DNA of 59,110 bases from an uncultured euryarchaeote. GTDB taxonomy: Archaea > Thermoplasmatota > Poseidoniia > Poseidoniales > Poseidoniaceae. Below, in pieces: positions 29,601-47,399 of this stretch. The notes under the pieces are model-generated. The model was not told the origin of the DNA. It made no database searches and saw only the letters and a program-made list of their open reading frames with translations. Positions within the stretch are counted from its first letter, which is position 1; every line of letters begins with the position of its first letter. The DNA lies in NCBI GenBank assembly GCA_937894115.1, contig CALBFP010000303.1, forward strand, positions 1-59,110, given 5' to 3'. Made by a program: the position numbers and the translations under genes.

Positions 29601-29831
29601 GTTCGAAACACAGCGAACCGCATCATTCAGTTCTCTTACGGTGAGGATGGAATCGATCCAAGCCGTGGCGTGCACGGTGCTGCTTTCAACATCGATGTCA
29701 TCATCGATGGTGCCCTCGGTACACAAGGTGGAACCAAAGACACTCGCGAAAGCATCGAACAGGAAGAGCGCGAAGATGATCTCGGAGCATGGGATGATGT
29801 CGAAGAATTCCATGATGGAGGTGAGGTCTGA
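26598..29831 (+). CDS. rpoA1: RNA polymerase subunit A' with a lineage-specific insertion
   Basis: 1077 aa. It has the zinc-binding N-terminus, [12 protein letters not shown] and the catalytic [10 protein letters not shown]. It is about 190 aa longer than typical A' subunits. Confidence 0.97.
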
Positions 29832-31399
29832 TGGTCGTTAAGAGTGCAACCAAGAAGAAGCTCATGGATTTGGGCATCGCTGAGAACTTCGCTCATACAC
29901 TTGCGAATGATCGAAAGTGGGATGACGTCAAGGTTCTCTCCGCACAAGACATCGCTCAAGTTTGCGAAACGGATTCTGAGACTGCTGGATCGATTCGAGA
30001 CACCATCGAAGGGGCTCTCAAGAAGAATCGTGCTGCCGGCTCCGAAGCTACCGGGCCTACAACCAACGTTCGCCTCAAACGACGTGTTAGTACAAGAACA
30101 CGCTCGCGTGCTAAGATTGCAGCAGATCTCGATTCCTATAAAATGGATAAAAAAATCAGTTCGTTTGAGGATGAACTCGCAAAAGACCCAGTCTACAAGT
30201 CCCTCAGAGCAGCCATCGACGACCTAGGAACAAACCGGTTCAGTGACAAAATTGTTCACGACATGACCGTTGCCATCCACGATCGTAACATCAAGAAATT
30301 GACGAAGAAGCAGGCTTCCACACTGGTCGCAGACGCCTACGATGCTTTGGACAAAGCAAGCATCGACCCCTTCGAAGCAGCTGGGATCATCACCGCACAA
30401 TCCATTGGTGAACCAGGAACACAGATGACCATGCGTACGTTCCACTATGCAGGTGTTGCGACGGTTAACGTAACGCAAGGTCTACCTCGTATCATTGAGA
30501 TTGTTGACGCACGAAAGATTCCAAGCACTCCAACGATGATCATTCGCTTGAAGGGTGAAAAAATGAACTCTTCAACCGAAGCTCAAAAATTAGCAGCCGC
30601 TCTTGAGGTCACCACAACAGCCAACATCGCTAACATCGAGACCGATGTTGCCCAACGCCGCTTGGTTTTGAAACTCAACAAAGGCCTTCTGAAGCAGAAA
30701 AACATGACGGGTAATGAAGTCAAAGACAAGCTTGAGCGTGCATTGCGAACGTTGGTACAGGCTGACAAAGACAAGAATCCCGGTGTTTTGACCATCATAC
30801 CCGGTGTTTCAAGCGAAGAAGATCTTGCTGATTTGCAAGAGAATCCACCGTCGTATACCATGTTGTTGCAACTCGAAGAGAAGATTCGTGACCTACGGCT
30901 CAAAGGCGTACCAGGAATTGAGCGTGCAAACGTCCAATACGATGATAAAAAAGAGGAATACTACCTCTCGACCATTGGTTCGAATCTCTCACGGGTCAGT
31001 GAAATCGAAACCATTGACCGAACCCGAACTTACACCAACAACATCATTGAAATTTTCAACTATCTGGGTATTGAAGCAGCGCGTCAAGCCATTATCAATG
31101 AACTTGAATCAACGCTGCTCAGTGCTCGACTTGAAGTCGATGTCCGCCACCTGTTGATGGTTGCTGATGTTATGACTTCAGAAGGAGAAGTACGAGCGAT
31201 CGGTCGACACGGTGTTTCGGGTACAAAGCACAGTATTCTTGCTCGTGCAGCCTTCGAAGTTACGGTCAACCATCTTCTAAAGGCAGGTATCATTGGAGAA
31301 ACCGACCGACTTACCGGTGTTGCTGAGAACATCATTGTTGGACAACCCATTTCACTTGGAACAGGAAGTGTTGAGTTGTTCTACATCCCAGAGGAATGA
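29831..31399 (+). CDS. rpoA2: RNA polymerase subunit A'' with ~130-aa N-terminal extension
   Basis: 522 aa. The A'' core begins near [30 protein letters not shown] is present, and the start overlaps the rpoA1 stop (ATGA-type). Confidence 0.95.
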
Positions 31400-31795: not shown

Positions 31796-34700
31796 ATGCG
31801 CCAACACTTGAACGGACTCTGTGCTGTCTTCCTCATCTCCATAATGCTTGGTTCTGTAGCGTTACCACAGTTCCCAAATGCTGAAAAGAAGGTTACGGAA
31901 CTTGACGAATCGCCAGAATCGTTCTTGACAAGTAGCCGTTCTGCACCCAGTACAATTCTTGCCACAGGGTCTGGTCAAGCCAACGAAGATGGAGAACACA
32001 TCGTAGCCCTTCCAAATGGCGGCTGGGTTGTGGGAATGTCGGAATGGACAAACTCGACATTGACCTATGGGACTCATACGCTCTCTACAACCTCTCCCTT
32101 CAATTCGATTGGATATGGTGAATTCTTCCTAGCAATGATGGATGACCAAGGGTCCTGGACTGGATTCATAAGCGCTGACCACAGCATTGGCAGTGGCGGT
32201 CTATCGATACTCACCGACGTTACTGTTGGTATGGCTGGGGAAATTTTTGTTTGCGGTTATTTTTACGGAGAAATTGCATTTGGTCCACCAGGTCCAAATA
32301 CCATTATTACAAACCTCAACTCTGGATATCATCTCGAAGGGTTTGTTGCGAAAGCAGACCCAATGGGTAATTGGATGTGGGCCACGAGTTTCACAACTTT
32401 GGTGAACGGTTCTGGAGAATTCAGCAGAGCCAAGTCGTTATCCGTTGATATGATGGGCGATCTGTTTGTCTCGGGTGAGTTTAGTGGTGAAACCGATTTT
32501 GGTGGCCAGAGCATAAATGCAACAAGCCGTGACGTCTTTATTGGAAAATTTGACGGGAACATGGGTACACTCAACTGGGTCATCAATGGAGGTGGAATTG
32601 GTACGGACCAAGTTTTTGATATGGCGGGTACACCATCAGGCGGTGTCAAATTGGCCACGTCAACAGACGGCGTCTCCCAGTGGGGAGCCAACACATACAT
32701 AGCAAATGGAAATCTTGACGCCGTTCTTGTCGATATTGATGCTAATGGAGGTGTGGTTGGCACGACAGGGATTGGAACGAGTGGCCAAATTACTGCAGTC
32801 TTGAAAATCCACGTCGATGGAGGTGGGAACACGTTCATGGCTGGGACTTTTGATGGAACAATTACCAGTGGAGGTTGGACTGCAACCGCAAGTTACGGTG
32901 GTAACGATATCTTTGTTGCAAAGAGTGCTGTGAACCAAGCCAACAGTTGGGCACTCGTTTCAGGCACAAACGCATACGACGAACCGCGAGCGCTTGCTGT
33001 AACCTCAAACGGTGGTGTTGTTTACGGTGGTTCCCTTGGCTCAACATTTACAGCGGGTTCTAAATCGATTTCAAACTCAAACGACGACGGTTTTGCCGTT
33101 GGTCTCTCCACAACTGGTTCGGTCAATTGGATTGAAAAGATTGGAGGATCACAATACGATTACGTTTGGGCTATGGATGTAAACAATTCAGATTACGTTG
33201 GTGCTGCAGGGGCTTTCTCCGGTTCTATGACGCACAAAGGAGTCTCGGTCACATCTGGAGGTTACCGCGATGTCTTTGCTTGGATTTTTGATCCAGCAGG
33301 ACTGATTGATACCGATGGTGATGGAGTCGTGGATTCAGCACCCGATAATTGTCCGACAGTTCCAAATTCTGATCAAGCCAATACAGACGGTGACTCAGAG
33401 GGGGATGCTTGTGACTCCGACGACGATAACGATGGACTGACGGACAGCTTCCCAGACAATTGCCCAAGAAATGGTGAATTCAATTGGACCAGTGATCGCG
33501 ATTTCAATGACCCTGCATCTTCGACCGATTGGGACAACGATGGGTGCAAAGACGATTCCACCGAAGACCTCGACGATGACAATGACGGTGTGCAAGATGC
33601 AGACGATGCCTGTCCACGCACCAGTTATTCTCCTCCACGACCAACATGGGTTTCGGATACAACAACCGACACTGATGGTGATGGCTGCCGAGATTCGGAT
33701 GAAGACTTGGACGATGACAACGATGGCTTTGAGGACGCTGCAGACGATTGTCCTACGGTTGTTGGAACATCCAGTCTCGGTACAGACGGATGCATTGATT
33801 CCGATGGTGACCTCTGGTCGGATACAACCGATGATTGTCCGACTGAGGCGGGAAATTCAACAGAAGGCGGATTGAACGCTTGTCCCGATCAGGACGGCGA
33901 TGGTTGGGCCGATTCGATTGATGATATGCCAATGGACCCAACGGTTTGGAGCGACCTCGATGATGATGGATTTGGCGACAATCTTGGAAGTACACCTGCC
34001 GATGCATGTCCACAAACACCGGGTACATCAACGGCGGACCGCTACGGTTGTGTCGATGCTGATGGTGATGGTTACTCAACACCGACAGAGGATTGGGGCG
34101 TCGACAGTGGTGCGGATGCATTCCCAAGCGATTCGACCCAATGGAGCGACTTCGATGAGGACGGTTTTGGTGACAATTACGGAAACGCTTCATGGACGGA
34201 TCGGCCAGAAAACTGGGTAGGAATCTTTGTTGATGGGGCCCAAGATCAAGATGCTTGTCCGATGCAACCTGGAACCAGTTGGCGTAACGGCATCCTCGGA
34301 TGTCCGGATTCCGACGGTGATGGTTGGTGGGATGTGCAAGATGCCTTCCCTACAGAAGCGACGCAACACTCGGATGTTGATGGTGATGGTTTCGGTGACA
34401 ATCAGAGCGGAGTGAATGCTGATGCATGTCCAAACATAGGTGGGAACTCAACGTTCGATCGTCTTGGTTGCATCGATACGGACGGCGACGGACGGTCCGA
34501 CCCTGAGTTGAGTTGGACGTTTATTGACGGTGGTGACGAATTCCGCCTCGAATCAACACAGTGGTCTGATTCCGATGATGATGGTTACGGGGATGAAATT
34601 GATGGTTTCCAAGGAGATGCTTGTCCAACTGTTTACGGTTTATCGTTTGAGGACCGGTTTGGTTGCCCAGATACGGACCGCGATGGTTATTCCGACCCCG

Positions 34701-35143
34701 ATGCAAACTGGACGATTGAAGACGGCGCTGATGCCTACATAACCGATTCAACAGCGTATGTGTACGTCGAACCGGTAGAAGTAGAGAGTGAAGAAGAGAA
34801 CTTTTTCACAAGTCCGCTGATGCTCATTGTGTATGCTTCAATCGTGTTGGTTCTCGTAGGATTGGGATTCATGATGACTCGACGTTCCAAGAAAGAAGAA
34901 TCAATCGATATCGCCTCGTTTGGTAGTCAACAACCAATGATGCAACAAATGACGGTTCCCCTTGCTCAAACCAATCCGTATCAGCAACCTGTACAAAATC
35001 AGACTTATACGCAGGTCGCTGCCCCTCAGCCGGTTCAACCTGATCCTGCAATGGAATACTACAACGGTTTACTCGCACAAGGATACACGCCCGAACAGGC
35101 TTCAATGTATACAAAGCAGTATTTCCCTCAATTCAACCACTGA
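31796..35143 (+). CDS. Giant surface protein: signal peptide, SBBP-like beta-propeller repeats, thrombospondin type-3 (Ca-binding) repeats, TM anchor and Gln/Pro-rich tail
   Basis: 1115 aa. N-terminal repeats look like GDLFVSGEFSGETDFGG. There are more than 15 DxDxDGxxDxxDxCP-type repeats. The TM helix is LMLIVYASIVLVLVGLGFMM. Confidence 0.85.
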   Translation: MRQHLNGLCAVFLISIMLGSVALPQFPNAEKKVTELDESPESFLTSSRSAPSTILATGSGQANEDGEHIVALPNGGWVVGMSEWTNSTLTYGTHTLSTTSPFNSIGYGEFFLAMMDDQGSWTGFISADHSIGSGGLSILTDVTVGMAGEIFVCGYFYGEIAFGPPGPNTIITNLNSGYHLEGFVAKADPMGNWMWATSFTTLVNGSGEFSRAKSLSVDMMGDLFVSGEFSGETDFGGQSINATSRDVFIGKFDGNMGTLNWVINGGGIGTDQVFDMAGTPSGGVKLATSTDGVSQWGANTYIANGNLDAVLVDIDANGGVVGTTGIGTSGQITAVLKIHVDGGGNTFMAGTFDGTITSGGWTATASYGGNDIFVAKSAVNQANSWALVSGTNAYDEPRALAVTSNGGVVYGGSLGSTFTAGSKSISNSNDDGFAVGLSTTGSVNWIEKIGGSQYDYVWAMDVNNSDYVGAAGAFSGSMTHKGVSVTSGGYRDVFAWIFDPAGLIDTDGDGVVDSAPDNCPTVPNSDQANTDGDSEGDACDSDDDNDGLTDSFPDNCPRNGEFNWTSDRDFNDPASSTDWDNDGCKDDSTEDLDDDNDGVQDADDACPRTSYSPPRPTWVSDTTTDTDGDGCRDSDEDLDDDNDGFEDAADDCPTVVGTSSLGTDGCIDSDGDLWSDTTDDCPTEAGNSTEGGLNACPDQDGDGWADSIDDMPMDPTVWSDLDDDGFGDNLGSTPADACPQTPGTSTADRYGCVDADGDGYSTPTEDWGVDSGADAFPSDSTQWSDFDEDGFGDNYGNASWTDRPENWVGIFVDGAQDQDACPMQPGTSWRNGILGCPDSDGDGWWDVQDAFPTEATQHSDVDGDGFGDNQSGVNADACPNIGGNSTFDRLGCIDTDGDGRSDPELSWTFIDGGDEFRLESTQWSDSDDDGYGDEIDGFQGDACPTVYGLSFEDRFGCPDTDRDGYSDPDANWTIEDGADAYITDSTAYVYVEPVEVESEEENFFTSPLMLIVYASIVLVLVGLGFMMTRRSKKEESIDIASFGSQQPMMQQMTVPLAQTNPYQQPVQNQTYTQVAAPQPVQPDPAMEYYNGLLAQGYTPEQASMYTKQYFPQFNH
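33308..34740 (+). repeat. Coding tandem array of thrombospondin type-3-like Asp-rich calcium-binding repeats
   Basis: Reiterated motifs DTDGDG, DSDGDGW, DxDDDGFGDN and (A/D)CP(x)xxG occur throughout the translation. At the DNA level these appear as recurring gatggtgatgg / gacggcgatgg units. Confidence 0.8.
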
Positions 35144-35193: not shown

Positions 35194-36417
35194 TCACGTG
35201 AGGACTTCGAGTAATCGGTCTTGCTCAGCAGCCATTCGGAGTTCCATAGCAATACGACGGCCACTGCTCATTGGTTGGCGCCAGAGAGCGTTACCGTAGG
35301 GGTGGCCGACACTGACGTGGACGTTGGTTCCTCCACCTAACCTTGGAGCGACGTCGTAAATCCAATAATTCATGTCCTTGTCGATGCATGTCTGCAAGCA
35401 GAACGGGCCAATGATTCCAGGACTGTAGTGCTCCTTACTTGCGTTGACGAATTTTTCTCCTAGTTCAAACGCCTTCTCCAACAACGACTCTCGAATGGTG
35501 GCAGTATTGTGGCCAACAACAGTCATTTCTGGAATTTTTTGATGTGCCGGCATTGTCATTTGTTGCGGGGCGGGCAGACGGACATGTCCATCCAATGATG
35601 ACTCGAATCTCCAATCAACGCCGAGAAGTTCCAATTTTTCTCCCTCATCTGCAAGTGGACTGTAAAAAAAGTTGAGATTAAACACTGGGCCGATAACATA
35701 GCGTTCAATGCGAGCACCATCAAGCGAAGCTTGGTCAATAATTCCATCTTTCAAAAGAACGCTTGACTTTTCCTTGTATTCTTCGTAAGAAGCACAAGTA
35801 AAGAAACCACGCTCAAGCTTCTTCTGAGCGTGGTGAAGTTTAACGATAACAAGACAATCGATGTCTTCTGGGTTTTCAATCGCTTCAGGATACGGTAATC
35901 CTGCTTTGTCCAGAATCCAATAGTAATCTTGTTCTTCTGTTCTTTCTTCCATACGCAACATGTTACGAGAACCAAAAAGAGGAACTTTGAATTTGTTTTC
36001 AACGTCCTCAATCGATGAGTAGGAAGTAAACGATCGATTGGGAATGTATACAACATTGCGTTTTCTCATCTCAATTTGCATGGATTCATCCATGATATCG
36101 TTGAATGAAGGCATAACGATTGCCTTGTCGACCATGCCGCGAAGCACACGTCCGGAGCTCGATCGTTTTGTTTTGAAGTAATTGGCGTACGTCTTGTGAC
36201 GTCCGTCTTGACAATAGGCAACCGTCGGAAAACCTTCCTCGATTCCACCATCACAAATATCCAATGCAGAGTGCGATGCGGTCATCCCAATCCGGAGTTT
36301 CATCCTGTCGTACTCTTCGATGATTTGTGCAATATCATCACGTTGAAGCATGGTTCTCATCCTTTCCTCGTCAATCACGGTCTTTGATACCATCGATTCA
36401 GCAACATCATTAGTCAA
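35194..36417 (-). CDS. purP: 5-formaminoimidazole-4-carboxamide ribonucleotide (FAICAR) synthetase, ATP-grasp
   Basis: 407 aa. IGMTASHSALDICDGGIEEGFPTVAYCQDGRHKTY parallels the PurP N-terminal block (GSHSALQI..GAK.EGF). This is an archaeal-specific purine enzyme. Confidence 0.75.
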   Translation of the reverse strand: MTNDVAESMVSKTVIDEERMRTMLQRDDIAQIIEEYDRMKLRIGMTASHSALDICDGGIEEGFPTVAYCQDGRHKTYANYFKTKRSSSGRVLRGMVDKAIVMPSFNDIMDESMQIEMRKRNVVYIPNRSFTSYSSIEDVENKFKVPLFGSRNMLRMEERTEEQDYYWILDKAGLPYPEAIENPEDIDCLVIVKLHHAQKKLERGFFTCASYEEYKEKSSVLLKDGIIDQASLDGARIERYVIGPVFNLNFFYSPLADEGEKLELLGVDWRFESSLDGHVRLPAPQQMTMPAHQKIPEMTVVGHNTATIRESLLEKAFELGEKFVNASKEHYSPGIIGPFCLQTCIDKDMNYWIYDVAPRLGGGTNVHVSVGHPYGNALWRQPMSSGRRIAMELRMAAEQDRLLEVLT

Positions 36418-37291
36418 AGCGTTGCAATTCCATCAATTCCTCGGTTGTAAGCGTGTCTCCAGACATCAACTTGCTCATCAAATCTTGAACTTCGACTCGG
36501 GCTGCTGGGCGTTCACCTTCACCAGCTTCTGCACTGCGTCTTGCTCGCATCATGTCTTGAATCGAGTGAAGACAACGCAGTGAAACGATGTAGAATCGGT
36601 GTGCTTTGTCGGCTTCCTGTTTTGTGTTGCGCAATTCACGGTGTTTGGAATTTGCGCGCTCACGTTGCTTGTTGACTTCTTGGTCCCACTGAATCATCAA
36701 ATCGTGCGCTTCTTGTGCAGCCGCCGCTGCCTCTTGGACGGATTGGTGGGCTTCGTCGTGTTCTTTTCGCGCTGCAGTGAGTTCTTGGTTCTCACTGGAT
36801 TCAGTATTGAGAAGTTCCTGGTCTTTTTTCATTTGTCGAATCTTGGCGTTGAGATCCTTGAGCCGCTTCATTACCTTTCCTTCGTTTTTTCCTGTGTGCT
36901 CTCCACGCTCGAATTCACGTTCAAGGCGGCTAAATTCACGCTGGAGTGATTGCAAGGTAATTGGGCGTTCCCGACGTCCCCTTGGTCCGCGTTCGGTTGG
37001 TTTTTCCTCGGGTTTGTCGGTGCGGAGTTTGTCTCGTATTTCTGAGACCTTCTTACTTGCTTCATTCCGAACGCCCTTCTTTTCACGTACAACTTGATTC
37101 ATTTGTTCCCGGACTTGTTTTTGTTGATCGGAGAGTTTAATCAATTCACGAACTTCTGCATTGAATTCATTTCTTTGGGAAACCAATTCCTTGGTTTTCT
37201 CATTCCATGAATCCCTTTCTTCACGGTGCTGGGTCGCTTTATCGTCAAGAATTGAGCGTCGTTCTTCAAAGAGTTGTTTGAAATCATTCAT
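36410..37291 (-). CDS. Archaeal coiled-coil protein (COG1340-like), paralog 1
   Basis: Highly charged heptad-rich sequence. Shared blocks with paralogs are RDSWNEKTKEL..QRNEFN, LEREFERGEHTGKNEGKVMKRLKDL, EAHQSVQEA and the C-terminal SGDTLTTEELMELQR. The ATG at 37291 is preceded by a GGGAGTGA SD. Confidence 0.7.
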   Translation of the reverse strand: MNDFKQLFEERRSILDDKATQHREERDSWNEKTKELVSQRNEFNAEVRELIKLSDQQKQVREQMNQVVREKKGVRNEASKKVSEIRDKLRTDKPEEKPTERGPRGRRERPITLQSLQREFSRLEREFERGEHTGKNEGKVMKRLKDLNAKIRQMKKDQELLNTESSENQELTAARKEHDEAHQSVQEAAAAAQEAHDLMIQWDQEVNKQRERANSKHRELRNTKQEADKAHRFYIVSLRCLHSIQDMMRARRSAEAGEGERPAARVEVQDLMSKLMSGDTLTTEELMELQRFD

Positions 37292-37467
37292 CGTGTTCAC
37301 TCCCGTTCTGTGGCAACCTTGGATATGCCACAAACAACGGACCTATCACGCCCATATAACCCCTTCACTCCAGCAAATAGATTCTAACACAACGAAAAGG
37401 AATGTTCAAAATCATCAAGAAGTTCCTCTGTATTGGTGAGATATTGTTTCTGGGTGGCCTACAAGGG

Positions 37468-38127
37468 ATGGAGCGCGTGGTACAATCCGATTTTCACGCA
37501 CCGTACATCAGTCTCATAACCGGGCCGCCGGGGTCGATGAAATCTTCATTTTGCTTAACGCTCTTGACAAACCATCTCAACAGAACTGGTGAATTCGGAT
37601 TGTACTGCACAGTCGAAGAAACGGTCGACTCGCTGATGCGCAATGCCGCAAGTCTTGGATTGCAACTACCTATGAACCTACAAGTGACGGATTTCACGGA
37701 ATTACGAAGAGAAAATGAGGATATGGATTATCTTAAATTTACAAGAAAAATGATCGAGCACTTCAAGCAAACACATGGTGATCGGTTCACAACATTCGTT
37801 TTGGATTCTCTGGGTGCAATCTATTCACTCACAACGGTTGATGAGGCAATGCGAAAGAAGATGTTTTCATTTTTTGACTTTCTTCGATCAATGAACCTCA
37901 ACGTGTTCCTAATTACGGAACGCAACATCGGAAATCATGCGGAATTGCAGGGTAATGAAGGCTTCTTGGCTGATGCTGTTATCAATATGGGAATGGATCA
38001 TCGAAATGGAAAATTGGTTCGGACATTGCAAGTTGAGAAGATGCGTCATGTTCGTCATGCAATGGAAAAGCAAGCGGTTGACGTCGGGCCGCAAGGGCTT
38101 GTCGTTTTAGGCCCTCTTTTTGAGTGA
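37468..38127 (+). CDS. KaiC/RecA-superfamily ATPase, single domain
   Basis: Walker A is GPPGSMKSSF and Walker B-like is TTFVLDSLG. Size and layout fit archaeal KaiC-like proteins. The start could be 37402. Confidence 0.7.
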   Translation: MERVVQSDFHAPYISLITGPPGSMKSSFCLTLLTNHLNRTGEFGLYCTVEETVDSLMRNAASLGLQLPMNLQVTDFTELRRENEDMDYLKFTRKMIEHFKQTHGDRFTTFVLDSLGAIYSLTTVDEAMRKKMFSFFDFLRSMNLNVFLITERNIGNHAELQGNEGFLADAVINMGMDHRNGKLVRTLQVEKMRHVRHAMEKQAVDVGPQGLVVLGPLFE

Positions 38128-38370
38128 ATCGATGAGCAAATCGATGGCACCGAGATTGACATTTGCTTCTGTCCGTATCAAGAAAATCGAAGATTTATTT
38201 TCAAAGAAAACCGCACATCCGTCTTTACCAATAAGCGTCAACCGGCTCTTTTTGTTGAGCAAAGCACTGAGTTGTTGAAAAGAAAGTCCTGTATTGTTGT
38301 TTTCCTTATCGAGGAATTCAACTGAAATCACATGGGGAATTTCACGAAGTGCGTCAAGCGTTTCTTGCAC
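38107..38370 (-). CDS. Small protein, possibly Roadblock/LC7-like
   Basis: 87 aa with a GTG start and no SD. It lies 9 nt after the GNAT stop. The pattern (GKDGCAVF ... ANVNLGAIDLLIDSL) weakly resembles the Roadblock fold. Confidence 0.3.
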   Translation of the reverse strand: MQETLDALREIPHVISVEFLDKENNNTGLSFQQLSALLNKKSRLTLIGKDGCAVFFENKSSIFLIRTEANVNLGAIDLLIDSLKKRA

Positions 38371-38379
38371 AAAACAAAC

Positions 38380-38886
38380 TCATTGTTGGGGTGTATCATT
38401 GTTTGGATGGTACGGTTGCAGCTTTCCATGCATGACGTACCCCATACCTTGGCGGTAATAGTTGTGAAGTTCTTGAGCGATTACCAAACCTCTTTTTCTA
38501 TAGAATGAAATGGCACGACTGTTTGTAGCACGAACCTCCAACTGCACATTACAATAACCCAAAGGGAGAACTTTGTCAGCAAGCATGTTCCAGGCCATCG
38601 AACCCCAACCCTTTCCCCGTGCACCCGAATCGAGCACAAACGAAACAATACGGACGGTATCTTGCTTGAACGGTGTTGTCCACAAAAGTCCTCGCATTGC
38701 GTTTGGAACCATGTTTTCTGAATCCAAAAGCATAAGATTTCCATCCCAAGATGGTACGGGCAATGTTTGTATTGATCCAATGAAGTACTCTTCTCCAGTC
38801 CCCTCGAGGAACAGGTGCTGAACGGCTTGCACCCATTCAAGAGAAAGTTGAGAAGGGGAAAGGCCATCACGCCACCCCGCAACCAC
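38380..38886 (-). CDS. GNAT-family N-acetyltransferase
   Basis: Acetyl-CoA motif A is LDSGARGKGWGSMA, and AISFYRKRGL is also present. The GTG at 38886 lies 4 nt after the upstream stop, giving a normal ~168-aa GNAT. The longer 220-aa track ORF overlaps the upstream gene. Confidence 0.75.
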   Translation of the reverse strand: MVAGWRDGLSPSQLSLEWVQAVQHLFLEGTGEEYFIGSIQTLPVPSWDGNLMLLDSENMVPNAMRGLLWTTPFKQDTVRIVSFVLDSGARGKGWGSMAWNMLADKVLPLGYCNVQLEVRATNSRAISFYRKRGLVIAQELHNYYRQGMGYVMHGKLQPYHPNNDTPQQ

Positions 38887-38890
38887 AACA

Positions 38891-41008
38891 TCACTTCCTT
38901 GTTTCTTTGCGGCCACGTCTTCGTCCTTGACGGATGTCAATGCGCTGTGAATTTCGCTTCTTTGATTGACGTTGCTTTTGTTGAGATTTTTTTGCTTCAC
39001 TGGAACCGATGCTTGCAATTCCTCCCTTTGAGAGCAATGCATCCAGTTCGTTCAAGGATAAGGAATCTCCACTCGAAGCTTTCTGTCGGACCTCATTTAT
39101 GTTTACTTCTGGGGCACGTTGACGTCTCGGTCTTGCTTGATGGTTGTCTATACGTCGCGCATTGTTGCGTTGTTTTTTGCTTGAAATACGCTGCCAAGCC
39201 TCTAGACGGCCTATTTCTCGTCGAAGTTCGTGTTTCGTAGTGTATTGCTCGTTAATGGAGCGTTGGAGCAATTTGGCGTTTTTCTGGAATTCTCGCACAC
39301 TCTTAGGATTCAAGTGAATGCCTTCAAGTGCAGGGTTGCTTTCAATCAATTGTTCAAGAATGTCTGTCTCCCTTCTTCTTGTTTTCTTCAAGGCTCGGTA
39401 TTCTTCATTCTGTTCACGACGAAGGCGAATAAAATCTTGATGTGCCTGATTTGATTGGAGTGATGCCTCGTACATTGCCTGAAGTTCAAAGAAATAAGCA
39501 AAATCACCTCTCTCAACCCCTAGACTTGGTGCATTGAAGACGTCAACCTCGGAGGTAAGTTTGTCGAACATACGCAACAGTTCTTCTTTGATTCGTTTGG
39601 TTGGGATGGCAATTCTTTGATTTATTCCGTCACGAACTTCTCGAATTTCTTGAACTTTCATACTCAATGGGCGCAGTTCAGCTAAGATCTGCTGCCGATC
39701 GGACTTGGCGATTCGTGTTTCTTTCAATCCTCCACGAAGCAAATCCAACAGTTCCTTGGAATTTTGACGTTCCTCTACAAGGCTACGGATCTGGTTCTCA
39801 ACGGTTTCGAGGTTGGTCTGCATTGTTTCAAGGCGCGTTGTAATTTCATCTCTTGATACGTTTCTCAAATCATGAAACAAGTCTTCAGGTTCTTCATCGA
39901 TATCGATTACTGGTTCGCAAATTGTTTGCCATGACGCTCCTTCCGATATCAGTTGAATCGCCCGCATGAACTCGTTTTGTATGGACATTGCACCCTCTGC
40001 GCGAAGCACTCGGGAAAGATCGTGCTCATGGTCGAATGGGTCCTCAATAGGCATGACATGAGCCATCATTCCATCTTCTGCACCCGTAACAACCTCAAGC
40101 GGCAACGGTCCCGTTTGCTGCCACTTCTTTTCCTTGGTAGAGAGCGGATTGCCTGAACGAATCGATACAACCATGGTGTCCCAATCCCAACGCGTTGCAA
40201 ATCGATCAAAGAAACTGACCAACAATGAGGCAAGCGTTTGTGCGTTTTTCGATGCGTAGGCATCATCGTTGAATCCAACATCGTATGTCGTGCCAAGAAA
40301 TGAGATGGGCTTAGAGGCGTTTTCATGTTGTCGATTTGGAGCGAGAGGAGGTTGAACCAGTTGCGCATGTTGGATGCATAACAATGTCCAAGCATAAGAG
40401 GAAAGGGTTCCTTCGAAAGCGTTGTTGACTCCACGGCGGCTTGCCCAATACTTGACCATCTGGACCAATTTTTGAAGCCGTTTTTCTTGCGCATAGGATT
40501 TCATCATCATCGAATTGTAGATTGCAAGACGGTTGTCCATTGAGATGTCAACATCCAAACCAGAACGCGGGTCTCTGAATTTTACGATGGGTATTCGAGC
40601 TTTTGGAATCACTTTGATGTCTTCCATGCCTTCCTCATGAAATAAGCCAGATAGTTTCCTGAGGACCTTTCTTGGTGTCTTGTTCTTGAAGGAGAGGCAC
40701 AAATCGAGGTCACCTGTGCCAATCGAGAGATTGGTGACGCTGGAACCAAATGCCTCAAGCATGGAATTTTTTCCGAATCTACGGAAGATAACTCCCTTCA
40801 AGTGTTTAGTAAGCGATTCTCTACTTTTGGCTTTTGCATCGCCAATTTTCTTGAACATTTTGTTGAAATCAGAATCCAATTTGTCCATAATGTCCTTGTC
40901 GATATTCGCCAAATCGGGGATTTCAATTTCTTCAATGAGGTGTTTGTAGAGGTAAGACCAGCGTTCCTGCTGATCTTTGGAGAGGCCTGTTGTGGTGCAA
41001 ACACTCAT
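38891..41008 (-). CDS. Cid1/TRF4/GLD-2-type (non-canonical poly(A)/terminal uridylyl) nucleotidyltransferase fused to a COG1340-like coiled-coil module and a basic tail
   Basis: 705 aa.
- Pol-beta NTase motif FGSSVTNLSIGTGDLDLCL with third Asp in LDVDIS
- KARIPIVKF and VKYWASRRGVNNAFEGTLSSYAWTLLCIQ
- PAP-associated-like LLVSFFDRF..VVSIRSG and IEDPFDHEHDLSR
- aa ~385-705: coiled coil ending SGDSLSLNELDALLSKGG plus an Arg/Lys tail. Confidence 0.8.
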   Translation of the reverse strand: MSVCTTTGLSKDQQERWSYLYKHLIEEIEIPDLANIDKDIMDKLDSDFNKMFKKIGDAKAKSRESLTKHLKGVIFRRFGKNSMLEAFGSSVTNLSIGTGDLDLCLSFKNKTPRKVLRKLSGLFHEEGMEDIKVIPKARIPIVKFRDPRSGLDVDISMDNRLAIYNSMMMKSYAQEKRLQKLVQMVKYWASRRGVNNAFEGTLSSYAWTLLCIQHAQLVQPPLAPNRQHENASKPISFLGTTYDVGFNDDAYASKNAQTLASLLVSFFDRFATRWDWDTMVVSIRSGNPLSTKEKKWQQTGPLPLEVVTGAEDGMMAHVMPIEDPFDHEHDLSRVLRAEGAMSIQNEFMRAIQLISEGASWQTICEPVIDIDEEPEDLFHDLRNVSRDEITTRLETMQTNLETVENQIRSLVEERQNSKELLDLLRGGLKETRIAKSDRQQILAELRPLSMKVQEIREVRDGINQRIAIPTKRIKEELLRMFDKLTSEVDVFNAPSLGVERGDFAYFFELQAMYEASLQSNQAHQDFIRLRREQNEEYRALKKTRRRETDILEQLIESNPALEGIHLNPKSVREFQKNAKLLQRSINEQYTTKHELRREIGRLEAWQRISSKKQRNNARRIDNHQARPRRQRAPEVNINEVRQKASSGDSLSLNELDALLSKGGIASIGSSEAKKSQQKQRQSKKRNSQRIDIRQGRRRGRKETRK

Positions 41009-41811
41009 TCTTCTTCACCACTTTTTTTGTCTTGTTGGCGCCGCTCACGTGCCAGAGCACGGGTGGATTTACCACCCTCTCGTACCCGTTGGGCATCAAC
41101 CAGCAATTCGTGAAAACCGTGCTCCAAGCAATTCTTCCAGAAGTCGATACCTCGCTGACTTTCATCCAAGGCCTGCGCTAATCTCGTCGTTCGTGCATCA
41201 GCGTGTTTTCTTTTCTGCTCGTTTTCGATGTATGTTTCGTGAAAAATCTGGTTCTCGTCATGCAGTTGAACCATCGCTTGATGCGCTTTGTCCGCAGTGT
41301 CAAGGAGTTTCTTTGCCTCCTCACGCAGTTCTTTCATTCGATTGATGTCAGCAAATTTTTCTTTTCTAGAATCAACCCATTCTTCGTGCTTTCGAATGAG
41401 ATTCTTCATTTCGTTGAGGGTCGAGCGTTCGTCTACATGGGTCCCCCAATTGGTTTGCAAAGAGAGATCTAGAGCGTCGAGGCGTTGTTGCAATCGATCT
41501 TTTGCCCATTCAGGCTCTGGTTTCGTATCACCCTTTTGCTGTGGTGTTGTTTCCCGAATCTCGCTTGCTTCGACGAACAAAGCCTTTGCCTTGGCTTGTG
41601 CATCGTTTCGTTCTTTTTTCAGAGATGCCACTTTCTTGTTGACATCGTCACGTTTGGATTTTGCTGAACGTGCCATGGCTGCTGCTTCTGTGAGCTCGTC
41701 ACTTCGTGCATCAAGCTGCTCGGGTATCTCCGCAGCGAGCCTTTCCCTTCGGTGGAGGATGGCTTTGCCTAACAACTCAGGCGTGATGGCCAAGAGTTCT
41801 TCAGGCGTCAT
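41005..41811 (-). CDS. Archaeal coiled-coil protein (COG1340-like), paralog 2
   Basis: Shares blocks with the other paralogs: KRDDVNKKVASLKKERND, LDLSLQTNWGTHVDERSTLNEMKNL and KAHQAMVQL. Its stop overlaps the NTase start (ATGA). The internal ATG at 41811 was chosen to avoid overlap with the divergent gene. Confidence 0.65.
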   Translation of the reverse strand: MTPEELLAITPELLGKAILHRRERLAAEIPEQLDARSDELTEAAAMARSAKSKRDDVNKKVASLKKERNDAQAKAKALFVEASEIRETTPQQKGDTKPEPEWAKDRLQQRLDALDLSLQTNWGTHVDERSTLNEMKNLIRKHEEWVDSRKEKFADINRMKELREEAKKLLDTADKAHQAMVQLHDENQIFHETYIENEQKRKHADARTTRLAQALDESQRGIDFWKNCLEHGFHELLVDAQRVREGGKSTRALARERRQQDKKSGEEE

Positions 41812-41902
41812 GTAAACCGCCCACTCTGCAACCATGAATAAACCTCCCGTCATGTCTTTGTTCGACATCATGCTCAAAAACCTCCACAGTTTGAACTGCT
41901 GT

Positions 41903-44047
41903 ATGGAGGAGTTGCGCAACCGTTTCACAACCACGCTCTTGGTTGCGTTGTTGCTATGTGTGCTTCCTATACAGATTTCTGTTCAGGCTGATGGGCCTGA
42001 AAATGTTCAATTCGTGGGCTTGAATGCTCTAACGTATTCAGGTGCTGATGAGAGCGGTGCATTCACATCAAACGCTACGATTCGGCAAGGGGATCATCTC
42101 ATTCTTGAAATTCCAATTGAAAACACAGGCGCAACTCCACAAGTTGCTTCTATCGTTCTCAACGTTAGCCAAGCAAGTTGGAACGAAACGGTTTATTTCG
42201 CAGACATCACAATCGATGCCTTAACAACTCATGTGGTGAATTATTTTTCATCCTCACGTGTTGTGGAGGGATTGTTAAACGTTGAAATGTCGATCAACAA
42301 CACGAGCGCGGAACTCGTTGATTCTGCGGATGTCGGGCCCCCTCCCCTACCGAGCGTGGATTTGAGCATCGATCTTGTAACGCAATCTTTTGCTTCTGGT
42401 GACTTAATCCAATTCAATCTATCCTCATCAAATGAAAATGGAGAACGTTCATTTGATGGCCATTTGCGTTGCGATTTCCTTGGAGAGCAAGTTTACAACT
42501 CATCCCTCGGATTGGATGTGGAACAGGACCAGTCGGATCTTTTCGACATCTATGCACGGCCCGGTGTTCTTGAATGTCAACTTGGGGGCGACAGAAATCA
42601 GTCTGATGAAACGTTGGTGACCTTCTCGCTTGAAGGACTAGCGTCCGCCGTGTTTGATGAAGCAGGGTCAAGTGGCCTCTCGATCAGTGGTGGTCCGTGG
42701 CACGTCGGAGATGGTGTACAGACGTCCTTTATTCTCAAGAATCAAGGCGATGATTCAGGCACAGCACAACTTCGCATTGTCAACGGAGATGATGAACATG
42801 TCAGTGAAGAGCTTGTCCTAGATCCAGGTGCCGCAGGTGAACTGGAGGTTGTAGTTTCCGATTTGGAAGCAGGTGTTCACAATCTCAGCTGGAGTGTCGT
42901 GTCTCAAGACGGTCTTGTATTGGCTGGACTTGAAGGGATTTCGACATTAACAATACGAACGCCTCAAGCGATGTTCGCAGATGTCGATGCTCAGGTGGAT
43001 GCAACAGGCGTCACGCTTCACTGGAATGTGTCCATTAGCGATGGTCTCGATAGGGAAGTTAAACTTCGATACGGCTACAGGGTTTCAGGCACGGATACAT
43101 TTGTCAACGAACAGATTGTAACGCTTGGATCGGGAACAGTAGCCGGTCAAACAACGCTCGGCAAAATACCAGGTAATACGGTTGTTTTGAGAATGGAACC
43201 CATCGGTTGGAGTTCAACATCCAGCAGTTACATCGCCTCATCGTCGTATCAGAGTGTTGTTGCTGCATATTCCTTCAGCATTGATTCAATACCGCTTCCC
43301 CAACAACCTTTGCAGGGACAAGACGTGACTGTGACTGTAAATTTGCAGAACACCGGCCCTGTTCAAGGCCCTGTTGGTGAATTGTATCTTATGGACAGCA
43401 GTGGAAGAATTCTTGCTGAAACATCCACTGAAGCACTTCAGTCGAGTTCCTCTCGGAATCTTGATTTTACTTTTGCAGCGCCGTACACAAACGAACTGCT
43501 TCTCAATGTGGAATGGCGGTTTGGAGACACGATTCTTGAGGCCGAGCAAAGTTTTTTGTTAGAGCCTGTTGAAGTTCAAGACAAACCATTTGAGGTCCCC
43601 TATGTGGCGATTGGAGGTGGTCTTGCCGCAGCTTGTTTTGTGATTTTCATACTCCATTTGAGGCGAGGCACCTCATCCGAAAAACCTGATCCCGCAAGGC
43701 CTAGCAAGCAAAAGAAATCGAAACCTGCGGTTGAAAAGAAAGAACCAGAAACCGTCGAAAAGACCTGCCCATCTTGCAGCAGAACGTTACGCATCCCTGG
43801 AGATTACTCTGGAACCGTTCGATGTCCGGATTGTTCCGAAAAGTTTCAGGTTGAAGCGGAAGAAGCGTTTGATATTGACGATGAGTTGGATTCAATCGAG
43901 GAAGTTGAACCGGTGAAAAAAACCGTTGAGGAGAAAGTGGAAATATCCTGTCCAGAATGTCCTTCTAAACTTCGTGTCCCTTCAAATTACAAGGGTTCTG
44001 TTCGTTGTCCACAGTGCTCAGTTGTTTTTTCTGTTATAAAAAACTAA
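41903..44047 (+). CDS. Surface protein with Ig-like repeats, TM anchor and cytoplasmic tandem zinc ribbons
   Basis: Signal peptide from the internal Met (MEELRNRFTTTLLVALLLCVLPIQISVQA). The ectodomain is long and beta-rich. The TM helix is VAIGGGLAAACFVIFILHL. Two CPxC-x16-CPxC ribbons follow (CPSCSRTLRIPGDYSGTVRCPDCSEKF and CPECPSKLRVPSNYKGSVRCPQCSVVF). Confidence 0.75.
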   Translation: MEELRNRFTTTLLVALLLCVLPIQISVQADGPENVQFVGLNALTYSGADESGAFTSNATIRQGDHLILEIPIENTGATPQVASIVLNVSQASWNETVYFADITIDALTTHVVNYFSSSRVVEGLLNVEMSINNTSAELVDSADVGPPPLPSVDLSIDLVTQSFASGDLIQFNLSSSNENGERSFDGHLRCDFLGEQVYNSSLGLDVEQDQSDLFDIYARPGVLECQLGGDRNQSDETLVTFSLEGLASAVFDEAGSSGLSISGGPWHVGDGVQTSFILKNQGDDSGTAQLRIVNGDDEHVSEELVLDPGAAGELEVVVSDLEAGVHNLSWSVVSQDGLVLAGLEGISTLTIRTPQAMFADVDAQVDATGVTLHWNVSISDGLDREVKLRYGYRVSGTDTFVNEQIVTLGSGTVAGQTTLGKIPGNTVVLRMEPIGWSSTSSSYIASSSYQSVVAAYSFSIDSIPLPQQPLQGQDVTVTVNLQNTGPVQGPVGELYLMDSSGRILAETSTEALQSSSSRNLDFTFAAPYTNELLLNVEWRFGDTILEAEQSFLLEPVEVQDKPFEVPYVAIGGGLAAACFVIFILHLRRGTSSEKPDPARPSKQKKSKPAVEKKEPETVEKTCPSCSRTLRIPGDYSGTVRCPDCSEKFQVEAEEAFDIDDELDSIEEVEPVKKTVEEKVEISCPECPSKLRVPSNYKGSVRCPQCSVVFSVIKN

Positions 44048-46391: not shown

Positions 46392-47399
46392 ATGTTGGGT
46401 TCAAAGGACCAAGCAGACGAGCGTCCTGATGCTGACTTGCGAGACCGCTTGCATGCAATGGAAGCAAAAGTACGAAAATTGCGAGAAGTACGCAACAATT
46501 TCAGTTCTGATGCACGCTCTGCTGCCGACCAAAGAAACGCTGTCCAAGCCCAATACAAAGAGCATCGTGAAAAAGTCGATGTTGTTCTTGCTGAAGTTAA
46601 GGCCATACGCTCCGAAGTTCGATTGTTCAAAGACAAGCGCAATGCGATTCAAGATCAGATTAAAACTGTGATTGGACAAGCAAAAGGACGACGAGGAGAG
46701 AAAAGCGAGAAAAAAAGTGCAACAGCCGAACACGCTCAGTTGAAACGCGATGTCGAACAACTTGAGAATCTCTACAACACGTCGGCTATGGGGCCAAAAA
46801 AAGAAAAAGAAACCATGGAAAAAATCAAGATTATGCATCGTCGAATTCAAGAATTGGCACCTGATGTGGAGGCGTTTGAGTTGGTAGCAGTGGATCTTGA
46901 TGATCTTGACGCAGCCATAAAGACGCTCAAGGCAGAAGCAGATGCCGCCCATCAAGCCATGCTTGAGGCGGTTGGAAGGGCCGATGAAAAGTCAAAAGAA
47001 GTCGACGAAGCATTTGCCCATCGAGATTTCCTCAAGGCAGAAGGTGACCGCCATCACAACGAGTACGTCGCACTTCGTGCAAAAGCCGATGAAACACATG
47101 CGAAAATCGATGAAATGATGACGGACGTGAATAAGGTTCGAGATGAATTGAACATGGCTCGCGAAGAGCGAAAGTCATGGATGACGGAACACAATAACGC
47201 TGTTACAAAGAGTTTGAAAACAGGAGCTGAATCCGAGGAAGTCGCTGATGAACTTATTACCAGTTTGCTAAGTGAAGGAACACTTACATTCGGCGGAATG
47301 GGTCAGGAAGAGACCACGGCCAGTACTGCACCTCGTCGTGGAGGCAAAAAGAAGAGATCGGGTCGAATCGATATGTCGGCCGGTCGCCGACGACGCTGA
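46392..47399 (+). CDS. Archaeal coiled-coil protein (COG1340-like), paralog 3
   Basis: 335 aa. Blocks are LENLYNTSAMGPKKEKETMEKIKIM and AAHQAMLEA. The C-terminus SEGTLTFGGMG plus the RIDMSAGRRRR tail resembles the NTase-fusion tail (RIDIRQGRRRGRK). Confidence 0.7.
   Translation: MLGSKDQADERPDADLRDRLHAMEAKVRKLREVRNNFSSDARSAADQRNAVQAQYKEHREKVDVVLAEVKAIRSEVRLFKDKRNAIQDQIKTVIGQAKGRRGEKSEKKSATAEHAQLKRDVEQLENLYNTSAMGPKKEKETMEKIKIMHRRIQELAPDVEAFELVAVDLDDLDAAIKTLKAEADAAHQAMLEAVGRADEKSKEVDEAFAHRDFLKAEGDRHHNEYVALRAKADETHAKIDEMMTDVNKVRDELNMAREERKSWMTEHNNAVTKSLKTGAESEEVADELITSLLSEGTLTFGGMGQEETTASTAPRRGGKKKRSGRIDMSAGRRRR

Follow-up and report, generated by a model that had tools for sequence, protein, structure and literature searches.

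A putative eukaryote-like RNA uridylyltransferase with a coiled-coil C-terminal half as a core gene of the archaeal order Poseidoniales

The window analysed here, that is the whole stretch of 59,110 nucleotides forming contig CALBFP010000303.1 of assembly GCA_937894115.1, comes from an uncultured euryarchaeote of the family Poseidoniaceae (order Poseidoniales). Its minus strand carries an open reading frame (ORF) of 705 codons, confirmed in the ORF list, whose product combines a terminal nucleotidyltransferase (TENT) domain with a C-terminal half made mostly of coiled coil (Table 1). This TENT gene is embedded in a cluster in which a DUF7121 gene is followed by the TENT gene, a GNAT acetyltransferase gene, a small ORF, in most loci a KaiC-like ATPase gene, a second DUF7121 gene and the gene of PurP. 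The other flank comprises genes for a membrane Zn-ribbon protein and a DtxR-type repressor, a 500-aa ORF, a third DUF7121 gene and a sugar-nucleotidyltransferase gene. At least 594 relatives of the TENT protein were found at E<=1e-5 in the protein database, and the best 120 are archaeal and near-full-length. The names given to these relatives by the databases are "hypothetical", "nucleotidyltransferase domain-containing" or, at the JGI, "DNA polymerase sigma". The archaeal proteins begin with a conserved leader of about 55 aa (M-S-x-C-x-x-T-G...). All the sequence blocks quoted in the first-pass annotation, a reading of the letters made before any database search, were recovered in the protein: two of them are listed in Table 1, and the blocks KARIPIVKF...LDVDIS and VKYWASRRG... 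correspond to aa 136-157 and 185-213, respectively.

Table 1. Coordinates of the TENT gene, its domains and motifs, its operon partners and the orthologs devoid of catalytic residues. Positions are those of the window unless a locus is named.
Feature	Position	Strand	Evidence
TENT + coiled-coil ORF, full	38891..41008	-	ORF list and homologs
Cid1/URT1-type catalytic module, aa ~42-370	39899..40885	-	Pfam, phmmer, Foldseek
Helix-turn G88-S89 and metal-binding D100/D102, FGSSVTNLSIGTGDLDLCL (aa 87-105)	40694..40750	-	Alignment of 42 sequences
D154, third catalytic Asp	40547..40549	-	Aligns with the Asp of Cid1 "QCDIGF"
Nucleotide-recognition motif IEDPFDHEHDLSR (aa 321-333), H329 = Cid1 H336	40010..40048	-	Cid1 alignment
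Antiparallel long coiled coil, aa 386-620	39149..39853	-	AlphaFold models, conservation
Conserved C-terminal peptide SSGxSLSLxELDxLLxxGG, aa ~637-668	39005..39100	-	Alignment
Lys/Arg-rich disordered tail, aa 669-705	38894..39004	-	AlphaFold pLDDT <50
Upstream DUF7121 coiled-coil gene	41005..41934	-	Pfam DUF7121, 35 bits
GNAT acetyltransferase, Ard1/RimI-like	38380..38886	-	Pfam Acetyltransf_1
Small conserved ORF, 87 aa, last of the minus-strand cluster	38107..38370	-	Found in 23 loci
Orthologs of the lineage without catalytic residues	L029:10001-12082; L030:6001-8085; L031:6001-8085		Alignment

The N-terminal half is, beyond reasonable doubt, a TENT of the Cid1/URT1 type. Two Pfam domains compose it and both score well above their gathering cutoffs: the MTPAP-like central palm domain PF22600 (aa 56-174, 93 bits for a cutoff of 27) and the poly(A) polymerase (PAP)-associated domain PF03828 (aa 258-329, 45.9 bits for a cutoff of 22.6). 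When all PDB sequences were searched with phmmer, Arabidopsis URT1 came first (E=1.2e-43 over aa 42-370), ahead of Cid1 of S. pombe (E=4e-37) and CutA (E=1e-36), and then, in falling order, TUT4/TUT7, GLD2, TUT1/Star-PAP, mitochondrial PAP and Trf4; the 39 matches are eukaryotic TENTs only. The full protein was modelled with AlphaFold from an alignment of 42 orthologs, with a mean predicted local distance difference test score (pLDDT) of 80.9. In Foldseek comparisons this model superposes on URT1 (7xs4) with a template-modelling (TM) score of 0.88, normalised to the target, and a root-mean-square deviation of 2.6 A, and on CutA, Cid1 and TUT7 with TM scores of 0.81-0.86. The architecture is that of a Pol-beta palm inserted in a PAP/OAS1 substrate-binding (PAP-associated) domain. 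The Cid1-type identity proposed in the first-pass annotation, with its catalytic palm and PAP-associated domain, is upheld by the profile searches and the structure comparison that it had called for, as well as by the sequence comparisons.

Several other kinds of nucleotidyltransferases (NTases) were considered and rejected. A CCA-adding enzyme is not supported, as none occurs among the 39 PDB sequence matches and the sole Pfam link in this direction is the generic NTP_transf_2 model, which is borderline (21.3 bits for a cutoff of 21, E=4e-4). The protein does not belong to a common prokaryotic NTase family lacking the PAP-associated domain, since PF03828 is present; this domain, together with the lack of a HEPN neighbour and of any PADLOC match, likewise dismisses a minimal NTase (MNT/KNT) or a toxin NTase (MenT/AbiEii). 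An anti-phage defence NTase (CD-NTase/CBASS) was discarded as well, PADLOC having returned no defence-system match for the TENT protein or its operon partners and the genomic context being a fixed, core one in all loci. A Pol-beta fold working on something other than RNA, through protein nucleotidylylation or the synthesis of a second messenger in the manner of OAS, cGAS or CD-NTases, is very improbable. TENTs, OAS and cGAS do have a two-lobed fold in common (PMC11646218), and a KaiC-like ATPase and a GNAT are encoded in the neighbourhood; the similarity of the protein to Cid1 and URT1 is nevertheless strong and specific, down to the nucleotide-recognition motif, and neither the OAS, Mab-21 and SMODS families in Pfam nor the PADLOC models gave a match.

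The active site is conserved throughout the 42 aligned orthologs, which span 35-96% identity. Invariant residues comprise G88, S89, D100, D102, D154, N159, N165, K186 and R192 and, further along the chain, S203, S204, Y205, E322, D323, P324, H329 and D330. Among 131 non-archaeal representatives these columns are conserved as well, and the complete catalytic set is kept in 25 of the 27 archaeal family representatives. The position of H329 is of particular value for predicting the nucleotide added. This region aligns with IEDPFEISHNVGR of Cid1, in which H329 stands opposite the His of "EISHNVGR", that is H336. In Cid1, H336 excludes ATP and its mutation yields a poly(A) polymerase, and the insertion of an equivalent His into Gld2 switches this enzyme to UTP (PMC4931116, PMC7498324). 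Because H329 corresponds to this UTP-selecting residue, the window protein is predicted to be a uridylyltransferase, with UMP as the most likely nucleotide.

The selector His is present in the window protein and in about 90% of the archaeal representatives. It is replaced by Arg in P0123 and P0124, where it matches R557 of CutA, by Val in P0085 and by Ile in P0127. Owing to these substitutions, specificity may differ between lineages, and the changes hint at lineage-specific shifts of the added nucleotide. An active RNA tailing enzyme with another preference, for instance one that makes poly(A) or adds C/U or A in a mixed fashion, has to be weighed. Such an enzyme would agree with the Arg, Val or Ile found in some orthologs, with the addition of both U and A by Cid1 in vitro (PMC7498324) and with the many switches of nucleotide specificity in the TENT family (PMC4931116). 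It is judged unlikely for the window protein, which carries, as do most representatives, the His of confirmed terminal uridylyltransferases (TUTases), and which among solved proteins is closest to URT1 and Cid1, both of them uridylyltransferases.

The C-terminal half has no counterpart outside this archaeal family. Helices are predicted at aa 386-463, 470-485, 496-557 and 568-620, with pLDDT values mostly of 85-93 in the long ones; the coiled coil is followed in the AlphaFold model by two short conserved helices and then by a disordered basic tail, the Arg/Lys-rich segment (aa 669-705) that the first-pass annotation had rightly pointed out. Conserved motifs of this C module include DLFxDLR, FFELQAM, RREIGRLEAW and SGxSLSLxxLDxLL, and in the C-terminal peptide L652, L658, L659 and G663 vary little or not at all. 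Among all TENT representatives, a hidden Markov model (HMM) of the C module matches only the archaeal proteins. A Foldseek search of the PDB returned generic coiled coils (an SMC arm, SH3BP5, chemoreceptors), none at E<=1e-3. In one representative, P0085 (860 aa), about 155 aa comprising the linker and the initial portion of the coiled coil are repeated exactly in tandem, which reflects either a very recent event or an artefact of assembly.

The first-pass annotation took the C-terminal half for a further copy of a coiled-coil module that three genes nearby also encode. These three neighbours are indeed paralogs of one another within DUF7121 (PF23435), with Pfam scores of 60, 35 and 18 bits and hhalign probabilities of 95%, 51% and 36%. 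No such membership was found for the C module: BLASTP between its body and the three neighbours is non-significant, PF23435 gives no match at E<=10 for the three C-terminal modules tested, and hhalign probabilities against the neighbours do not exceed 5%, with scores no better than those of a reversed-sequence control. What survives of the claim concerns the last ~45 residues, which resemble the "...KKKRSGRIDMSAGRRRR" tail of the protein encoded at 46392-47399 (BLASTP E=2e-5, hhalign E~0.01), and the conserved C-terminal peptide, which weakly resembles the tails of the proteins encoded at 36410 and 46392. The C module was thus rejected as a DUF7121 paralog, no homology being detectable over the coiled-coil body. 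A distant homology is conceivable, though not demonstrated.

The likeness between the two kinds of proteins is otherwise one of general design. The three neighbours, as DUF7121/COG1340 proteins, have a similar size (~270-335 aa) and consist of long helices throughout; their conserved "SG-x-(S/T)L(S/T)-x-x-(E/D)L" motif, together with a basic "R-I-D-x-x-x-G-R-R-R" tail, is weakly similar to the tail of the TENT protein. The third DUF7121-like paralog, at 46392-47399 (+), has the basic "...RID-x-x-x-GRRR" tail in common with the TENT protein and is conserved at 63-96% identity across the order, against 35-80% for the TENT protein. A DUF7121 search seeded with the protein encoded at 36410 was saturated by Poseidoniales orthologs and reached no members outside this order.

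One deep lineage of the family throws light on the respective roles of the two halves. It is represented by P0158 and P0429, which are 70% identical and derive from at least four contigs of different samples. In these proteins, G88 is replaced by D/E, D100 by E, D102 by G/A, D154 by N and N159 by D; N165 is replaced by E, K186 by T/S, S203-S204-Y205 by G-N/Q-D and D323-P324 by S-A/V, so that essentially every catalytic and nucleotide-binding residue is lost. The proteins nevertheless retain their full length and the C module, and their genes still overlap the upstream gene by 4 nt within an intact synteny. Identity between P0158 and P0429 is 62% in the N-domain and 79% in the C module, a pattern which is reversed in the active lineages, where the N-domain is the better conserved part. 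The proportion of synonymous differences (pS) reaches 0.78 and is saturated, so that the comparison usable here is that of pS with the proportion of nonsynonymous differences (pN), not dN/dS; pN amounts to 0.25 for the N-domain and to 0.13 for the C module. Since pN lies far below a saturated pS, both halves are under purifying selection.

Mutated catalytic Asp residues in orthologs, which the first-pass annotation had regarded as telling against the proposed enzyme, are thus found in this one deep lineage, with the 25 complete representatives out of 27 on the other side. The lineage raises the question of a mainly non-catalytic scaffold or adaptor, in which catalysis would be dispensable, the TENT fold serving to bind RNA or a partner and the coiled coil to build a complex with DUF7121 proteins. 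Everything that P0158 and P0429 have kept under selection speaks for such a role. Conversely, all the other lineages preserve the catalytic and nucleotide-binding set over 35-96% identity; because this set is invariant and conservation is higher in the N-domain than in the C module, these lineages bear the signature of a working enzyme. A scaffold is therefore held to be an improbable account of the family, and the dead lineage is no argument against the activity of the window protein. It constitutes instead a natural experiment separating a catalytic from a scaffolding role.

That the gene belongs to an archaeal genome is firmly established. The window belongs to a Poseidoniaceae genome, as seen from the RNA polymerase operon with RpoA'' (Pfam Rpb1_5), an L30e-type gene and an archaeal PurP; a tRNA-Lys gene lies upstream of the RNA polymerase operon, and the TENT block adjoins this operon. 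RpoA'' (29831-31399, +) is 522 aa long with Rpb1_5 starting at aa 144, which implies an N-terminal extension of about 140 aa, and its relative in L029 is also of about 520 aa. When each GTDB species was scanned through one genome, the protein was detected in 28 loci, at 35-96% identity, titled almost all Candidatus Poseidoniaceae, Poseidoniales, Euryarchaeota or Thermoplasmatota. Wherever the contig reaches, the gene order is identical in these loci and in three metagenome loci (L029-L031) of about 30% identity, and the TENT gene is full length in all 31. The first-pass annotation was thus right in placing this enzyme in an archaeal genome.

A eukaryotic contamination or a mis-binned contig might be suspected from a few GTDB titles that are themselves mis-binned ("Salipiger bermudensis", "Rhodobiaceae") and from the eukaryotic nature of the nearest relatives outside the family. 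It is already refuted by the identical synteny of 31 independent loci from many samples, by the presence of archaeal RpoA'', L30e and PurP genes on the same contig and by the 4-nt overlap with an archaeal DUF7121 gene. The TENT gene belongs to the core genes of the Poseidoniales and is inherited vertically. One cluster of TENT proteins (P0130, P0270-P0276) is made up of fragments of 81-517 aa carried by contigs of 0.27-2.0 Mb; they look frameshift-broken in long-read assemblies rather than really truncated.

The relatives of the TENT domain were then sought in 1.84 billion cluster representatives, which produced 6,928 matches at E<=1e-3. The first ~15 representatives are archaeal and all possess the C module. 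The next ones, at 30-42% identity, are eukaryotic wherever a source name exists (Fabomonas, Filamoeba, Ginkgo, Phalansterium, Pigoraptor, Haematococcus, Hildenbrandia, Pavlovales), and one further near representative sits among intron-poor genes for IQ and EF-hand proteins. A neighbour-joining tree of 158 TENT-domain representatives, built without outgroup, gathers the archaeal sequences in one clade with 98/100 bootstrap support. As 33% mean identity separates archaeal from eukaryotic sequences, versus 43% among the sampled eukaryotic TENTs themselves, the archaeal stem branch is long. In the best-match ranking, the protein is closer to URT1/Cid1/TUT4/7 than to GLD2, TUT1, mtPAP or Trf4. No relative was found by tblastn in 50,697 phage records nor by structure at E<=1e-3 in BFVD, and a viral or phage route of transfer was rejected on these grounds. 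The best-match ranking, the eukaryotic neighbours, the single clade and the distribution confined to one order make a single ancient transfer from a eukaryote to the Poseidoniales, before the order diversified, the most parsimonious scenario. A phylogeny had been proposed in the first-pass annotation to examine horizontal transfer, and the tree obtained supports a single origin of the archaeal clade.

The organisation of the operon points to functional partners. The likely true start of the upstream DUF7121 gene is near 41811, giving a product of 268 aa, and its TGA stop codon overlaps the TENT start by 4 nt (ATGA). This overlap, correctly reported in the first-pass annotation, is also present in L029 and L030 and is thus kept down to about 30% identity; because it is retained in the most divergent loci, co-translation of the two proteins, and possibly their assembly in a complex, is suggested. 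The upstream DUF7121 protein terminates with Gly-Glu-Glu-Glu in every lineage examined (41005-41020, -, in the window; L029:9183-10004 for the divergent gene). A charge contact between this acidic end and the basic TENT tail is conceivable, as a speculation.

On the downstream side, the GNAT gene starts with a GTG codon at 38886, where the homology between orthologs begins, 4 nt past the TENT stop as had been noticed in the letters, and it adjoins the TENT gene in every locus reaching beyond the latter. Its closest solved relative is the Ard1 protein N-terminal acetyltransferase of Thermoplasma (PDB 4pv6, E=3.7e-8), and NCBIfam gives a weak rimI match. The reading of this GNAT as a member of an RNA-tailing and modification operon accordingly finds no support, the best relative being a protein N-terminal acetyltransferase and nothing linking it to RNA modification. 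The 87-aa ORF has no match in Pfam, NCBIfam or PADLOC. Its 3' end overlaps by 21 nt that of the convergent gene of a single-domain KaiC-like ATPase (37402-38127, +), which is missing from this position in L019, L020, L029 and L030. Further on, the DUF7121 gene at 36410-37333 (-) overlaps by 8 nt the start of purP (35194-36417, -), an adjacency found in all loci; its probable true start at 37291, 14 codons downstream, gives a protein of 293 aa as in the orthologs. Two large predicted surface or membrane proteins are encoded at 41834-44047 (+) and 31796-35143 (+), one with a transmembrane segment followed by two C-terminal zinc ribbons, the other with thrombospondin type 3 (calcium-binding) repeats.

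On the whole, the window protein is best explained as an intact RNA 3'-uridylyltransferase of the Cid1/URT1/TUT4/7 type that would have been acquired once from a eukaryote, a reading to which a probability of roughly 0.65 is given, catalysis being deduced from the conserved residues. In this enzyme, two Mg2+ ions would be held by D100, D102 and D154, and untemplated nucleotides, UMP in the first place, would be added onto the 3'-OH of an RNA. The coiled coil of ~235 residues, the short peptide and the basic tail would provide oligomerisation or the docking of a partner, together with RNA binding; the likeliest partner would be the translationally coupled upstream DUF7121 protein. As a biological role, RNAs could be marked at their 3' ends and so directed to decay or processing. 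The gene would have entered the ancestor of the Poseidoniales once, probably from a eukaryote, and been inherited vertically ever since as a core chromosomal gene.

Some points weigh against this interpretation. The attachment of the archaeal clade among the eukaryotic TENTs has bootstrap values of 27% and 14%, and the direction of the transfer is a matter of parsimony only. The P0158/P0429 lineage shows that the protein has, as judged from its conservation, a role surviving the loss of catalysis, so that part of the function is non-catalytic. Specificity for U may not be universal in the family, the selector residue varying by lineage. The host organisms are uncultured, and neither a reader of U-tails nor an exonuclease specific for U is known to us from these archaea. 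Oligo(U) is bound by archaeal Sm-like proteins, and the archaeal exosome is a known tailing and decay machine; by analogy with the eukaryotic Lsm1-7 and Dis3L2, either could read U-tails. A wider proposal, in which the Poseidoniales as a whole, which rank among the most abundant archaea of the plankton, perform TENT-mediated RNA 3' uridylation with a eukaryote-captured enzyme wired into a DUF7121/COG1340 complex, is put forward tentatively and is held to be less likely than not.

These considerations define what is new in this system. Archaeal RNA tailing is attributed to the exosome and, to our knowledge, the only other enzyme of this kind in archaea is the class I CCA-adding enzyme. In the literature, non-canonical poly(A)/poly(U) polymerases count as enzymes of eukaryotes (PMC11646218, PMC6240794). 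A full-text search, extended to DUF7121 and COG5260 and with most subscription journals outside its scope, found no literature on this gene. The catalytic domain itself belongs to a known family and is already tagged automatically by the databases, so that the surprise is biological and not one of detection. As far as could be determined, the novelty resides in its place among the core genes of a whole archaeal order, in the C module, in the operon and in the dead lineage. If active, the enzyme would extend enzyme-specific RNA 3' uridylation outside the eukaryotes, to globally abundant archaea (Poseidoniales, Marine Group II). It would also represent a rare transfer from a eukaryote to an archaeon fixed as a core gene, a compact and intron-free TUTase that could be expressed in bacteria and that carries a novel coiled-coil adaptor, and, if wired into a DUF7121/COG1340 complex, a first functional handle on this uncharacterised archaeal protein family.

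The comparison with known systems places the protein among the enzymes of the TENT3 type. The archaeal CCA-adding enzyme, the usual RNA 3'-end NTase of archaea, is another member of the Pol-beta NTase superfamily; it does not appear in the PDB matches obtained here. CutA of Aspergillus, a C/U-adding TENT, is among the top matches in both sequence and structure, and differs by its Arg where the window protein has His. Inactive TENT domains are known from TUT4/7, to whose N-terminal pseudo-catalytic module we presume the P0158/P0429 lineage to be comparable; this lineage, not the window protein, keeps the fold without the catalytic residues. With URT1, Cid1 and TUT4-TUT7, finally, the window protein has in common the two-domain architecture described above as well as the G-S, DxD and third-Asp motifs, the nucleotide-binding Asn, Lys and Ser-Ser-Tyr residues and the IEDPF..H(D/N) motif with its UTP-selecting His. 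Unlike these enzymes, it resides in an archaeal host, with a mean identity of about 33% to eukaryotic members of the family, and possesses an N-terminal leader and a unique C-terminal half of ~330 aa; it has neither zinc knuckles nor a disordered Pro/Gln-rich region, and it is the product of an operonic, translationally coupled gene.

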